Below are positions 46,994 to 52,889 of a DNA stretch of 64,000 bases, in pieces. The first letter of the stretch is position 1. Every line of letters begins with the position of its first letter. A model generated the notes under the pieces. The model ran no database searches and was not told the DNA's origin. It was given only the letters and a program-made list of their open reading frames with translations. The stretch covers positions 19,791-83,790 of IMG/VR virus record IMGVR_UViG_3300032309_000634. The stretch is one strand, 5' to 3'. Source of the DNA: a virus. The translations under genes were made by a program, and so were the position numbers.

Positions 46994-47021
46994 AATCCTG
47001 AGCAAGATTTTAAACTGCTCA
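46994..47021 (+). ncRNA. Putative H-type pseudoknot RNA, copy 1
   Basis: AATC-CTGAGCA-A-GATT-TT-AAAC-TGCTCA. Confidence 0.6.
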
Positions 47022-47480
47022 CTAAAAATTTTCGAAGCGCAAAGTTATCCACAGCTTTACGTAGGTTGTCCACAAGCCCAGGTTTTGTGAGATTTATCAC
47101 AATTTTTAATTTGTATTTTTATTTTAAGTATGCTAAGATTATTTTATGACTAAGAAAACCGCTGAGGAATTACGCAGACTTATGGAACTTCGCCGTTCTA
47201 ATGCTGCCTCCGCCGTGCCTTCTAAAAAGACTTATACTCGCAAGGGTAGAAAATGTCAGTCTGCTATGCTAGAATTAAAAAATAACAACAACTAAGAAAG
47301 GTCGTGCCCCCATGACATTTGAAAACGATGAATTCTATGATGAGTTCTATGCTACTACCTGCCCTAAGTGTAATGAAAATGCTGTTGATGAATATATGCC
47401 AGTGTGTGATCATTGCTGGCTAAATGAGTTAGCAGATTCTGTTACTCATGAAGATATGGCCTTAGAAATGAGCCTCTCCC

Positions 47481-48206
47481 TTGACTACTAAATTAAAACG
47501 TTCTAATGATAGAAAGGTGGCTAACCTTGTCACAAAAAATGGAAAGCAAGCAGCAATTGCCAACACCTTCGGCCTACCCGCTGGAAAGGCTTATTCTTGT
47601 CCTGGCGCAACGTCTGTTTGCGAGAGTGTCTGTTATGCGGGAAAACTAGAAAAGGTATTCCCTAGCGTAAAGGTTAACTTACTTCATAACTGGTCCCTGC
47701 TAAAAGACGCAGACTATTTAACCATGCTTAATTTGATTGGTGAGATGATTGCTGATTTCAAAGCTGATTGTGTAAAAAAGAATGCGCCTATGTTATTTCG
47801 TATCCATTGGGATGGCGACTTCTTTAGCGATACTTATGCGACTGCGTGGTCTGATGTAATTAAACTTAATGCGGATGTACAATTCTGGGTTTACACTCGT
47901 GTTAAGTCTGCTGCTCTCATTCTAAAAGATATTGATAACCTCTCACTGTATTTTTCTGCTGATAGCGAGAATGTTAAAACTGCTGTTGATCTAAAAATTA
48001 ATAGTGGAGTACGCATGGCATACCTTGCTAAGAATTTTGCTATAGGTCAAGCAGATCTTAAAGAAATGATTGGTAAGCCTGCTGCTAAATGTCCTGAGAA
48101 TAATAAGCAAATTCCATTGATTAGCGCTGCTGGCTCCGCTTGTGTTTCTTGTAAGTTATGTGTATACTCAAAGAGTGACATAATTTTTTCTGCTACTAAA
48201 AAATAA
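47481..48206 (+). CDS. gp88-like (mycobacteriophage gene 88 family) protein
   Basis: FGLPAG...CPGA...C...CYA, FRIHWDGDFF, FWVYTR, C-terminal CP...C..CKLC. Confidence 0.75.
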   Translation: MTTKLKRSNDRKVANLVTKNGKQAAIANTFGLPAGKAYSCPGATSVCESVCYAGKLEKVFPSVKVNLLHNWSLLKDADYLTMLNLIGEMIADFKADCVKKNAPMLFRIHWDGDFFSDTYATAWSDVIKLNADVQFWVYTRVKSAALILKDIDNLSLYFSADSENVKTAVDLKINSGVRMAYLAKNFAIGQADLKEMIGKPAAKCPENNKQIPLISAAGSACVSCKLCVYSKSDIIFSATKK

Positions 48207-50381
48207 AAGGAGAATAATAAAAATGGAAATGTTAATTATTGCGATTGGTATTTTTATTGCTATCCTAATGATTGCTGGATCTAGATAATAAAAAATAATT
48301 TAAAGGGCGGCTACTGCAGGCTGTCCTTTATTTTTTCGAAAGGTTTTCCACAGGGTGATTTAAGAACTGTGGATAATTTACCCAGGTTGTGAGATTAATC
48401 ACACGACACGCCGTCTTACTATTTAAGATAAGATTATTTAAAATTGAAAATGTCAGTGTGAAATGGTAGGCTTACAGTATAAAGAAAAAGAAAGAAGGTT
48501 GCCCCCTATGGCTACAGTTATAGATAAGACAGATCACTACTTAATTTGGGATATATCTCATATCCACTGCGATGAAATACAATTTAAATATCAGTGCCGT
48601 GTATGCGATGAGTTTATGGATTGCTACTATTGTTCGTTTGACTATGATGAACCCTGCGATTGTCAGTACGATATGCTAGTATCAGAAATATCAACAACGA
48701 AAGAAGGAAACTAATGTATCAAATTACTATTGCCTACGATAGCAAACCTATCCATTGGAACAAAAACTATGTAGACGCTTTAGAGGCGTTTACAGATTTC
48801 TTATCCTTTACAGATTGGGGATTTGCTAACGAATACTCAACAGTTAATCTCTTAATGCCGACTGGCAAAATGTATACAAAAGTATTTTATCGTGAGGGCA
48901 GATTGGTGGTAACTAAGTAATGGCACTATTTAACTTTACTTGTTTTATCAATGTTGAGGCAGATGACTATGATTCTGCTATTGCTATGTTTGATAGTAAT
49001 ATCAGATATGGCTTACTAAATAAAAATGATGTTTATGTCCATGAGATCGAGGAGAAAATATAATGGGATCAATAACAGCACTAGGAATTAAAGATGAAGT
49101 CTTAGACTTAGAAACGCAATTGCGTTATCACTTACAGGGTAATCATTATCCACCAGTACCCGTTGAAATGGTTGCCCCTTGTATTGAAGCAATAGATGCC
49201 GCTTATGACGAGGACTATGAGCGTGTAATTGATATGCCTATGGTTGGTGACTTTCAGATACGCTGGCGTGGTTTGACTCAAGCCCCCGCATGGGCTATTA
49301 TTGAACAACACCACCTATCGTGGTTTATTGACCCAGTAGATGAGGATAACGAATAATGTCTAAGACCTATAAAGTAAGCATGTATCATGAGTTTTATCTT
49401 GAAACGACTGATATTGAAGAGGTAATGAAAAATTACCAATTCCCTGATTTTTGCGATTGTGAGTCTATCATTGGCGAGCCTGAATTTCTAATCAACAGTA
49501 ACTCATGGGTAGAAATGTCAGACTCAGAATTAGATGCGATGTTCGCATGATGACAATAAATAAATGCCCTTGTGATGAACACGACTGCCTTAATCAAGAT
49601 GACTACACGATTGATGAATATATGTGCGAGGAATGTTTTATGGACTGCGTAGAAATGGATAATGCCTAAATGAATGCTACAATGAAACCTATGGAATTAA
49701 TCTTTGCTGATCGTCTAACACCTGGGCAACTAATGCTTAATGATTTAATTGGCGTTGAGGATGATGTTGTTGAAGTTATTGGAGTTAATGATACTAATAA
49801 CGGAGATGATTACCAAATTGAGTTCATTGATGAGTTTGGTGAAAAAGATATTGTTAATTTCAAGCATGATGATTTAATTTCGCTATATGTTTATGTTGAG
49901 GATGATGAATAGCTAATAAGTTAATTTCTGTGCTTCCCCGCAGAAATTTTCGAACCGTGTGAGATTTATCACATGACCCTTTACGTATGACATTTATCAC
50001 ACCCAGGTTTACGATTAAGAATTGACATTTATGACATTTTCTGTCATACTTAGGTATAACCAAATAACAATTCCAAATAGTGAGATTATCAGGTAATAAT
50101 TTGATAAATGTCAGTAGGAAATGTTATACTTAAAATATAACCAACCAACAGAAAAGGAAAAAACAATGTCAGTTAATACAGCAACTTACAAGGTAGGCGA
50201 CACCTACACAACACAAAAGTCAAAGGTAACAGGAACAATCGCAGAGATCACGCCTCTCTCAAATGGTAATGTCCGAGTCAAGTTAGATGTAAATGGTACA
50301 CACCGCTACACAACTTGGACAGCAAAGTAATCTAATTACTAAGTGCCTAGCGTACAGGCACTATAAATAAGTGGCGTGAAC

Positions 50382-50409
50382 TATCCTGAGCAAGATACCA
50401 AAAGGCTCA
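50382..50409 (+). ncRNA. Putative H-type pseudoknot RNA, copy 2
   Basis: TATC-CTGAGCA-A-GATA-CC-AAAA-GGCTCA. Confidence 0.55.
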
Positions 50410-50469
50410 CCAAAATGTCAGACCACCCCCCTATAATATAAATACCCCATAAACAGAAAAGAGAAACAA

Positions 50470-51650: not shown

Positions 51651-51679
51651 GGACCTGAGCACGTCCTTAAACTGCTTCA
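51651..51679 (+). ncRNA. Putative H-type pseudoknot RNA, copy 4
   Basis: GGAC-CTGAGCA-C-GTCC-TT-AAAC-TGCTTCA. Confidence 0.55.
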
Positions 51680-51839
51680 CAAATTTTTCGAACGGCCTAG
51701 CTTAAAAGTCAAGTTACGATCATGTGATTAAGATCACGAAAAAAATGTCCATATTGTCCATGTTTAACTATCCCGATTTGCTTTTGTCAGTCGGCAATGT
51801 TATACTTAAATTAACAATCAAACGAAAGGAAATAAACTC

Positions 51840-52856
51840 ATGGCACATGACTTAGAATCTCAGAATGGCAAAACATCTTTTGCTTCATTCCGTGAACCTG
51901 CTTGGCATGGATTGGGTACTGTATTCTCAGAGGAAAAAACCACATCAGAAATGCTTTCATTAGCAAATCTTGACGGGTGGAATGTTCGTCTTGAGGATTT
52001 AGAAACCCCTACACATCTAACAAGCGACAAGGCGTACCAATATGTCTTGCGTACTAATCCCACAGATAACACTCAAACCGATATTCTTGGTGTAGTTGGT
52101 GAACGCTATCACGTTTTACAGAATGAGGATCTATTCTCATTCGGTGACAATATCCTAGACGGTGGCGGTCGTTGGGAAACTGCTGGCTCAATCAAGGGTG
52201 GTCGTGTCGTATTTGGTGCGTTAGCACTAGAGCGTGAAACAATTCTTGACCCTAGCGGTGTTGCCGATAAGGTCAAAACTTATTTGCTCATCAACACATC
52301 ACACGACGGTTCTATCGCAATTCAAGCAAGTATCACGCCTGTTCGTGTTGTATGCGCTAACACTCTCAACCTTGCTCTTGGTTCAATCAAGAAAAAGAAT
52401 GGTATCAAGCAATCTTTCAAGATTCGCCATACTCAAACTGCTAACGGCAAAGTTCAAATTGCTCGTGAAACTCTTGGCATGGCTAACAAGTATATGGATG
52501 AATTTGATCTCATGGCTAAGGCTATGATTGAAAAAGAAGTCACAGCACTTGATTTTAACAAAATTGTTCTTGCTGCTTATCCTAAGCCAGAAAAAGATTC
52601 TAAGGGTTCACTTAAAAAGTGGGAAAATAAAATTGATGTTGTCAATGATATTTACACTGGTGAATTTAATGGAATGATTGCTGGTTCTGCTTGGGGTGCG
52701 TTCAATGCGCTAACCGAACGCCTTGACTGGTATCGTTCTGCTCGTGGTGGTTCTAACGAATCCATCCTTGCTTCCGCAAGTGGTTTTGATCCTGCGATTA
52801 ACGCAGAAAAAAATCGTTTGCTAAGAGTTGTTCAAAATGTTATGGCGTTAGCCTAA
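51840..52856 (+). CDS. DUF932 / TIGR03299-like phage-plasmid protein
   Basis: MAH...REPAWHGLG, ETAGSIKGGR, NTSHDGS, TPVRVVCANTL, IRHT. Confidence 0.85.
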   Translation: MAHDLESQNGKTSFASFREPAWHGLGTVFSEEKTTSEMLSLANLDGWNVRLEDLETPTHLTSDKAYQYVLRTNPTDNTQTDILGVVGERYHVLQNEDLFSFGDNILDGGGRWETAGSIKGGRVVFGALALERETILDPSGVADKVKTYLLINTSHDGSIAIQASITPVRVVCANTLNLALGSIKKKNGIKQSFKIRHTQTANGKVQIARETLGMANKYMDEFDLMAKAMIEKEVTALDFNKIVLAAYPKPEKDSKGSLKKWENKIDVVNDIYTGEFNGMIAGSAWGAFNALTERLDWYRSARGGSNESILASASGFDPAINAEKNRLLRVVQNVMALA

Positions 52857-52860
52857 CAAA

Positions 52861-52889
52861 AAATCCTGAGCATGATTTCAAACTGCTCA
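52861..52889 (+). ncRNA. Putative H-type pseudoknot RNA, copy 5 (6 nt before tRNA-Asp)
   Basis: AAATC-CTGAGCA-T-GATTT-C-AAAC-TGCTCA. Confidence 0.6.

Follow-up and report, generated by a model that had tools for sequence, protein, structure and literature searches.

The early-gene block and its five pseudoknots

The DNA analyzed here (the window) is a stretch of 64,000 nucleotides (nt) that makes up the final 64 kilobases (kb) of the 83,790-base IMG/VR virus record IMGVR_UViG_3300032309_000634, whose completeness CheckV estimates at 77%. Our subject is a small RNA pseudoknot. Exactly five copies of it, each on the plus (sense) strand, occur in the window, and the rest of the record adds none. 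Up to about 42 kb the genes of the window lie on the minus strand and are late or structural, with tape measure, portal, protease and ribonucleotide reductase among their products. Beyond that point a plus-strand block of small early genes and transfer RNA (tRNA) genes begins, and all five copies are found in it. Part of this block, at 50121-52856, is a cassette encoding proteins of 69, 140, 87 and 135 amino acids (aa) together with a DUF932 protein, which is kept in many of the contigs that bear the motif. Neither Pfam nor PHROGs gives a known function for the cassette proteins, and among the genes flanking the copies the two databases name only DUF932 and GP88, both of unknown function.

Each copy is an H-type pseudoknot of the sense transcript, about 28 nt long. 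A hairpin of 4-6 base pairs (bp), P1, is closed by a C-G pair and followed by a single C (L1). Six bases of the loop (UGAGCA) pair with a downstream UGCUCA to form the second helix, P2, with one unpaired base at the helix junction, and an A-rich linker ending in AAAC (L3) crosses P1. The common layout is thus P1a, C, UGAGCA, one base, P1b, the AAAC-ending linker (AAAA in copy 2) and UGCUCA. The copies, with the open reading frames (ORFs) whose stop codons they follow, and the neighboring tRNA gene are:

Copy 1, 46994-47021, plus strand: P1 AAUC/GAUU (46994-46997 with 47006-47009), L1 C at 46998, P2 standard (46999-47004 with 47016-47021), junction A at 47005, L3 UUAAAC (47010-47015); 9 nt past the stop of ORF 46832-46984.
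Copy 2, 50382-50409, plus strand: P1 UAUC/GAUA (50382-50385 with 50394-50397), L3 CCAAAA, P2 50387-50392 with 50404-50409, the 3' arm being GGCUCA with one A.G mismatch at the junction pair; 51 nt past the stop of ORF 50121-50330.
Copy 3, 50904-50934, plus strand: P1 AUGUC/GACAU (50904-50908 with 50917-50921), L3 GCUAAAC, P2 standard (50910-50915 with 50929-50934); 11 nt past the stop of ORF 50470-50892, with the ATG of ORF 50961-51224 26 nt further on.
Copy 4, 51651-51679, plus strand: P1 GGAC/GUCC (51651-51654 with 51663-51666), P2 51656-51661 with 51673-51679, the 3' arm being UGCUUCA with one extra (bulged) U; 15 nt past the stop of ORF 51228-51635.
Copy 5, 52861-52889, plus strand: P1 AAAUC/GAUUU (52861-52865 with 52874-52878), L3 CAAAC, P2 standard (52867-52872 with 52884-52889); 4 nt past the stop of the DUF932 gene (51840-52856).
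tRNA-Asp(GUC), 52896-52970, plus strand: called by ARAGORN and by the Rfam tRNA model (67.7 bits); starts 6 nt after copy 5.

An earlier, sequence-only reading of this DNA had placed five copies on the plus strand at these positions, and all of them were found again, P1 sequences included. It had described P2 as imperfect in two copies, which correspond to the A.G mismatch of copy 2 and the extra U of copy 4. It had also put the copies shortly after stop codons, with one of them 6 nt ahead of tRNA-Asp: a same-strand ORF ends 4-51 nt upstream of each copy, and the tRNA called by ARAGORN is the neighbor of copy 5.

Between copy 2 and the stop codon before it lies a separate hairpin at about 50341-50361, and the AAAAGGCUCA form of this copy is found again in other phages, in 8 of the 187 copies sampled below. 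Copy 4 has a near-identical counterpart in a relative, L053. What comes next after copies 1, 2 and 4 is not a gene but a promoter or operator region.

A further hairpin, UAGUAG-GGGG-CUACUA at 51630-51648, extends over the stop codon of ORF 51228-51635 and ends 3 nt before copy 4. The pairing of this hairpin with a pseudoknot was found again in L008, L035, L053 and L061.

A chance origin of the five copies is excluded. The exact two-part pattern matches the window three times, against no match in 100 shuffles, and a covariance model, R1, built only from copies on other contigs (alignment A1, below), scores copies 1 to 5 at 54.1, 27.0, 37.9, 34.5 and 53.9 bits, the next best match in the 64 kb having 9.5 bits (expect value E = 1). 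The heptamer CTGAGCA by itself is not enriched, with 11 matches against 8.3 expected.

Covariation in both helices

Scanning IMG/VR with the exact pattern returned at least 119 viral contigs. Among the matches listed, 129 are unique and lie outside the present record, and 113 of these have the C...G closing pair. Their P1 helices, counted as consecutive pairs, have 3 pairs in 21 copies, 4 in 60, 5 in 22, 6 in nine and 7 in one. By eye, the remaining 16 mostly have a longer junction or another closing pair, and about five of them look like chance matches. A C-G closing pair was required in the later sets; its conservation is testable only in the 129. The loci were fetched by a pattern that fixes the consensus, so variation across the family is under-sampled. 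Within them, a scanner tolerant of P2 variants gave 187 copies in 111 sources, which are the basis of most of the context counts below; ORF calls in these loci are crude and mechanical, being the longest ORFs of at least 50-60 aa.

In these copies the loop has 8 nt, namely CUGAGCA plus U, A or C. Across the 187, L3 is 4-13 nt long, most often 6 nt; it is spelled UUAAAC in 14 and AUAAAC or UAAAAC in 27 more, AAAC itself being required by the search patterns.

For P1, covariation was read from 83 distinct copies of equal length (alignment A1), in which 92.6% of cells are paired, as against 25-38% when the partner strand is slid. Pairs 6-19 and 7-18 are paired in 83 of 83 copies, the first as GC, AU, UA or CG and the second as UA, AU or CG. 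Because the fetching pattern fixes P2, extra copies were gathered in the same loci with no condition on that helix; the only requirements were a CC with a G eight positions later, four pairs in P1 and an in-register AAAC. The resulting alignment A2 holds 55 copies unmatched by the fetching pattern plus copy 1 of the window (56 rows), and 83.9% of its cells are paired, against 28-39% when slid. Changes on both sides occur at all six P2 pairs: pair 11-31, for example, is GC in 35 rows, AU in 8, GU in 4 and UA in 3; pair 12-30 is AU in 40 and GC in 6; pair 13-29 is GC in 39, AU in 4 and CG in 3; and pair 14-28 is CG in 30, UG in 13 and UA in 2.

Eleven of the 56 rows are evident chance anchors with unrelated loop letters. 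With these dropped, the five inner P2 pairs of the 45 family rows comprise 206 Watson-Crick pairs, 18 G.U, one A.C and no other combination, so that 224 of 225 pair. The 18 G.U against a single A.C indicate that the strand that folds is the sense strand and not the complementary one. Pairing is weak at the outermost P2 position, where 17 of the 45 rows have no pair. Full compensation along P2 is seen in the versions UGGACA/UGUCCA, UAGACA/UGUCUA, UGAACA/UGUUCA, UGGCCA/UGGCCA and UAAGCA/UGCUUA, the last of which occurs in Planktothrix phage PaV-LD too. Beyond what pairing needs, the L1 C, the closing C-G, the junction A-U and the AAAC are invariant.

These alignments bear out the argument of the sequence-only reading that compensatory changes denote an RNA structure on the sense strand; covariation, whose absence from a larger alignment would have spoken against the fold, extends across phage contigs to P1 (in A1) and P2 (in A2) alike. 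The element, whose two helices both covary and which occurs on at least 119 viral contigs, is a well-supported RNA family.

The same figures make it very improbable that the copies are purely DNA-level elements, either recombination boundaries or mini mobile repeats that shuffle gene cassettes and have no role as RNA. Two-helix compensation and the 18:1 ratio of G.U over A.C amount to selection on a sense single-strand fold, and the sharp lower limit on the distance from stop codons described below has no DNA-level reason. The copies do flank variable small genes, and in metatranscriptome contigs of relatives there are gene-skipping or gene-swapping joints at the copy starts 50382, 50903, 51650 and 52859. 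Joints and breaks at repeats, however, also arise from the aligner or assembler, and the copies either mark the borders of exchangeable gene cassettes or confuse aligners.

Phages that carry the element

Shared proteins link 96 of the 111 loci, so much of the sample represents one broad phage group. The element nevertheless extends beyond it: the covariance model matches all seven named phage records tested, and its carriers include cultured phages of Erwinia, Vibrio, Paracoccus, Lentibacter, Synechococcus and Planktothrix.

Paracoccus phage ParMal1 (Autographiviridae): covariance-model match.
Synechococcus phage S-EIVl: three covariance-model matches.
Vibrio phage D456: covariance-model match.
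Erwinia phage Berlingot (Chaseviridae): covariance-model match.
Planktothrix phage PaV-LD: covariance-model match.
Lentibacter phage ICBM2 (Zobellviridae): covariance-model match.
A Christensenellales phage from human feces: covariance-model match.

In the Christensenellales and Vibrio phages the annotated neighbors include small ORFs on the opposite strand, and the gene-end context there is unclear. In all, the element is spread over phages of Proteobacteria and Cyanobacteria and predicted phages of Clostridia, that is, at least four virus families and three host phyla. A scan of the species-genome collection gave 120 matches, most of them due to chance as judged by the spread of their gap lengths; 26 have at least three P1 pairs and about 16 look typical. 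All of these lie on contigs of metagenome-assembled genomes, and no host can therefore be read from them.

The occurrence of the element in several families and phyla suggests that its partner is probably universal host machinery and not a phage-specific protein. This makes it unlikely, in our view, that the element is the binding site of one conserved host or phage protein, such as a translational repressor, decay factor or chaperone, that reads the invariant bases. Such a site would account for the L1 C, closing C-G, junction A-U and AAAC being invariant where pairing would allow change, and for the presence of a copy behind each of four genes in one conserved early cassette. Yet the invariant bases gather at the helix junction, where such pseudoknots are expected to make tertiary contacts (PMC10321173). 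In addition, an all-against-all BLASTP comparison of 4,488 ORFs from the 111 sources found no protein cluster in more than 30 loci, a weak objection in that the loci are partial genomes; DUF932 was found in 30 of the 111. A protein sponge, one of the functions listed in the sequence-only reading, is conceivable.

Known RNA families and nearest relatives

The sequence-only reading did not recognize the family, and a comparison with Rfam 15 gave no match. At gathering thresholds five tRNAs of the window match and none of the copies does; at E up to 10, the region 46900-53000 gives seven matches, none overlapping a copy and none to a riboswitch or ribozyme. Our literature search, which left the catalog tables of PMC10690425 uncompared, found no description of the element in phages. 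That paper lists 10,006 candidate viral RNAs, including a candidate, DNAVirus_1850, that occurs 27 times and once overlaps a tRNA-Asp call. A preprint on structured phage RNAs, 10.64898/2026.09.22.753630, proved unrelated.

Least probable of the functions considered is a riboswitch aptamer or small self-cleaving ribozyme, an option raised by the sequence-only reading (as a ligand sensor or ribozyme) that finds no support here. The compact knot, the invariant junction bases and the size are those of a preQ1-I-type aptamer, and the preQ1-I riboswitch (RF00522) is likewise an H-type pseudoknot of about 30 nt with an A-rich 3' linker. Unlike preQ1-I, the phage element stands behind genes and not in 5' leaders, and its P2 does not lie over a ribosome-binding site. 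No downstream gene is common to the copies, whose neighbors fall into 70 clusters on the downstream side and 53 on the upstream side. No expression platform is present, Rfam names no riboswitch or ribozyme, and in an element of only about 28 nt the L1 and junction would leave scant room for a pocket.

The closest known relative is coremin, with its variant xrRNA-WCC (xrRNA, exoribonuclease-resistant RNA), from beny-, cucumo- and other eukaryotic RNA viruses. Coremin consists of a 4-bp hairpin whose loop reads YGAD or YGNNAD, followed by a conserved spacer and by a second hairpin that it cannot do without; it stalls Xrn1 and scanning ribosomes (PMC10520033). In a pseudoknot model, nucleotide 5 is a one-base L1, loop nucleotides 6-8 are paired with spacer nucleotides 18-20, and spacer adenosines are placed in the minor groove of stem 1; the Watson-Crick variant, xrRNA-WCC, pairs GAG with CUC, and coremin-type motifs drive -1 frameshifting, in a screen done in E. 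coli (PMC10321173).

Set beside these descriptions, the phage element shares with coremin a small H-type pseudoknot with a first stem (S1 or P1) of about 4 bp closed by C-G, a single-base L1 that is C in both and not freely changeable, an A-rich linker that reads UUAAAC in some copies, and pairing of the loop with the bases just past that linker. The GAG/CUC of the Watson-Crick variant is the core of the phage P2, and both elements lie in untranslated or intergenic RNA right behind coding sequence. The two also differ in several respects. The phage loop has 8 nt and fits YGAD or YGNNAD only at the first Y and the last two positions; P2 has six Watson-Crick pairs where coremin, as described, has three or non-canonical ones; one unpaired base separates P2 from P1; no second hairpin follows; and the carriers are double-stranded DNA phages whose hosts lack Xrn1. 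Coremin forms with loops of 4-7 nt, including the tetraloop and hexaloop, were not enriched among C-G-closed hairpins with AAAC in these loci. As the loop departs from the consensus and the second hairpin is missing, we treat the phage element as a new form of coremin-like knot outside the coremin family. This resemblance was not part of the sequence-only reading, which stands in its structure and only in part in its list of functions.

Placement relative to genes and tRNAs

Loci with more than one copy number 38, and in every one of them all copies are on a single strand. Ninety of 179 start at most 20 nt from a same-strand stop codon (ORFs of at least 60 aa), against 13 of 163 in a mirror-image control, and no more than 5 of 187 fall within the bounds of such an ORF. 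The distance from the stop to the L1 C has a minimum of 9 nt, which is also its commonest value; with one median taken per upstream gene cluster, it is 9 in 16 of 63 and 10 in another 7. With a P1 of 4 bp the helix starts about 5-6 nt after the stop, which is roughly where, from ribosome footprints, RNA enters a ribosome holding the stop codon in its A site. In the close cases the stop codon is TAA in 46 of 55.

This spacing recalls the -1 frameshift pseudoknots of luteovirus and retroviral type, for which PMC10321173 is the source of the comparison; they are small, compact two-stem folds with an L1 of 1-2 bases in the deep groove and an A-rich loop along stem 1, placed 5-9 nt from the A-site codon. 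Unlike in those pseudoknots, the A-site codon here is a stop, and there is no overlapping frame to shift into. A role as -1 frameshift stimulator was rejected on the grounds that copies follow stops and rarely lie inside an ORF, slippery sites not having been searched for systematically.

For 19 of the 187 copies a tRNA on the same strand begins 3-13 nt further on; it is tRNA-Asp 13 times, tRNA-Arg twice, and tRNA-Leu, -Gln and -Ser once each. No copy is found in the first 30 nt behind a tRNA. Spacing to the next start codon is loose, with a median of 116 nt and a range from less than 20 to more than 500 nt, and the nearest downstream gene is convergent for 22 of the 177 copies that have one called. 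Intergenic gaps that hold a copy have a median length, after subtraction of the copy, of 173 nt versus 73 nt, on these crude ORF calls. Where an upstream ORF is called, it belongs to one of four families of the window cassette (69-aa, 140-aa, 135-aa and DUF932) in 57 of 120 copies; the others lie behind 49 other clusters. The element is pinned to the upstream stop and loose to the downstream start, it stands ahead of tRNAs and never behind them, and promoters or convergent genes often come next, all of which ties it to the upstream ORF.

The flanks are unstructured and A/U-rich. The 3' flank is also poor in G (2-10% over +1 to +6), with C commonest at +1 and +2 and A/U thereafter. Over the 28 nt downstream the mean minimum free energy (MFE) is -1.85 kcal/mol, compared with -2.53 and -3.30 kcal/mol in controls, and an MFE of -6 kcal/mol or below is reached in 11 of 176 cases, compared with 19 and 35 of 176 in the two control windows. 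An adjacent strong hairpin follows only nine copies.

An A/U-rich tail of this kind could provide the weak hybrid of an unusual terminator or pause site of the host RNA polymerase, with the pseudoknot replacing the G+C-rich hairpin. In the window, copies 1 and 4 sit before regulatory regions headed by the octamer TTTTCGAA (see below), just as two classical hairpin-plus-T-run terminators do (at about 48300-48340 and 49925-49954), and the 20 nt that follow the element contain a TTTT in 21% of 182 copies, a share that drops to 7-9% further on. However, 79% of copies have no nearby T-run; where there is one, as after copies 1 and 4, it begins 6-9 nt past P2, too far for the canonical mechanism, and the commonest base at +1 and +2 is C. 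Many copies, moreover, lie between close same-strand genes or 3-13 nt ahead of a tRNA that needs to be transcribed. We regard a terminator as improbable. A role related to Rho was discounted, since the element occurs in cyanophages, and cyanobacteria are not known to have Rho.

The proximity to tRNA genes also brings to mind a tRNA-like processing signal, in which the stacked P2 and P1, 10-12 bp in all, would mimic an acceptor arm and serve as a substrate for RNase P cleavage or for the CCA-adding enzyme. CCA does follow P2 in 16 of 113 copies, which leaves it a minority feature. There is no T-loop, and ARAGORN and the Rfam tRNA model call the true tRNAs only and none of the copies. A cut on the 5' side of P2 would, furthermore, destroy the fold and leave the upstream message unprotected. 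Such mimicry seems to us highly unlikely.

A possible barrier at the ends of messages

Nuclease blocking or processing fits best with the location at gene 3' ends and on the 5' sides of tRNAs and with the unstructured, G-poor tail. We tentatively propose that the element serves as a compact barrier by which the message upstream of it is capped at its 3' end. The pseudoknot would be a self-contained mechanical obstacle at the end of the cistron, placed as near the stop codon as the terminating ribosome permits. RNase P acting at an adjoining tRNA, or an endonuclease acting in the A/U-rich tail, would cut the transcript, or the transcript would end downstream; 3'-to-5' exonucleases would trim it back and halt at the knot, and the upstream early message would in this way be capped and stabilized segment by segment. 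At copy 5, an RNase P cut at the 5' end of tRNA-Asp would leave a message ending 6 nt past the pseudoknot.

The RNase III sites of T7 early RNA and the REP-type (repetitive extragenic palindromic) stabilizers are 3' stem-loops at intercistronic processing sites of phage and bacterial messages, and the triple helix of MALAT1 adjoins a tRNA-like RNA cleaved by RNase P. By analogy, the former would resemble our proposal in that a structure at the end of a cistron blocks 3' exonucleases after a downstream cut, and the latter in that a protective structure lies just upstream of an RNase P site, comparable to the pseudoknot-then-tRNA order of 19 of the 187 copies. The likeness would be functional only, as these structures, either ordinary hairpins or a triple helix, differ in sequence, and none of them is a conserved-sequence pseudoknot common to unrelated phages.

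Several points weigh against a 3' cap. The predicted stability of the pseudoknot is modest, P1 often consisting of four A-U-rich pairs. Since 57 of the 120 upstream ORFs belong to one cassette, the context statistics are partly inherited and not all independent. Four metatranscriptome runs contained 5-17% of the sampled words, and their matches over 49900-53100 are Logan contigs of relatives, mostly 88-95% alike; as these show neither RNA ends nor strand nor level, they give support neither way. Finally, coremin blocks 5'-to-3' movers (Xrn1 and scanning or translating ribosomes), with no 3'-to-5' block described there (PMC10520033, PMC10321173).

This last point is the strength of a somewhat less likely model, in which the element would be a coremin-like roadblock in the 5'-to-3' direction that stops ribosomes past the stop codon, or stops RNase J or a 5'-end-scanning RNase E, and thereby insulates or protects the downstream cistron, tRNA or regulatory region. 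The architecture is common to coremin and xrRNA-WCC, which stall Xrn1 and scanning ribosomes and drive -1 frameshifting (PMC10321173, PMC10520033), and coremin, as the sole biochemical precedent, favors this direction. P1 also begins where a stop-bound ribosome would meet it, given the 9-nt minimum between the stop and the L1 C. On the other hand, the rear of a tRNA, a useful position for a 5' protector, holds no copy, whereas 19 stand in front of tRNAs; the next start lies at a loose distance (median 116 nt), a convergent gene comes next in 22 of 177 cases, and promoters follow three of the five copies in the window. The element has no counterpart of the second hairpin, on which the Xrn1 resistance of coremin depends, and the Erwinia and Vibrio hosts are not known to have RNase J. 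The roadblock and the 3' cap could, however, hold together.

With somewhat more reserve than for the 3' cap itself, we suggest that phages may carry an enzyme-stalling RNA class of their own, a minimal pseudoknot of conserved sequence related to or convergent with the coremin xrRNA, that halts exonucleases, and possibly ribosomes, at cistron boundaries. If so, this would be the first class of exoribonuclease-resistant RNA among prokaryotes and a structural solution found across kingdoms, and phages with hosts as different as Cyanobacteria, Enterobacterales and Clostridia would have in it a portable cap for segments of their messages. A barrier of this kind would be a portable module, about 28 nt in size, that determines in very different bacteria where message segments end and how long they last. 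It would bear on differential expression from read-through early phage transcripts and on the survival of messages beside tRNA genes during RNase P processing, would add DNA phages to the eukaryotic RNA viruses as carriers of nuclease-resistant RNAs, and would offer a very small part for stabilizing synthetic bacterial messages. Whatever its function, the element is a well-supported RNA family that is missing from the main RNA catalog.

Regulatory repeats and other features of the window

The octamer TTTTCGAA occurs nine times in the window, against 2.8 expected. Five of the occurrences, at 47029, 48333, 49947, 51685 and 52975 on the plus strand, stand at the head of regulatory regions of the early block that are about 120-160 nt long; the octamer is also present at 44817 and 56265. 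Each region headed by TTTTCGAA directly follows a structured RNA, be it pseudoknot copy 1 or 4, one of the two classical hairpin terminators, or tRNA-Asp.

CRP-like palindromes (TGTGA-N6-TCACA with at most one mismatch) number eleven, against 2.8 expected, all in the early block at 44530-53546 on the plus strand and mostly inside the TTTTCGAA-headed regions, as at 47086-47101, 48388-48403, 49958-49973 and 51723-51738. They are probably operators of a single phage or host regulator. By eye, promoter-like boxes consisting of ATGTCAG, 10 nt and a TAnnnT -10 box, some with an extended -10 TGn, can be made out at about 48450-48480, 50105-50140, 50411-50440 and 51785-51815, and candidate promoters of the TTGACA type at about 50025 and 53055.

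Elsewhere in the window, the genes for the portal and for ribonucleotide reductase flank a minus-strand ORF of 1,250 aa (15473-19225) for which PHROGs gives no match at 1e-3. On the plus strand at 63408-63712 lies a tight array of tRNA-Arg(UCU), Met, Asn and Gly, which, unlike the solitary tRNA-Asp, has no pseudoknot copy in front of it.

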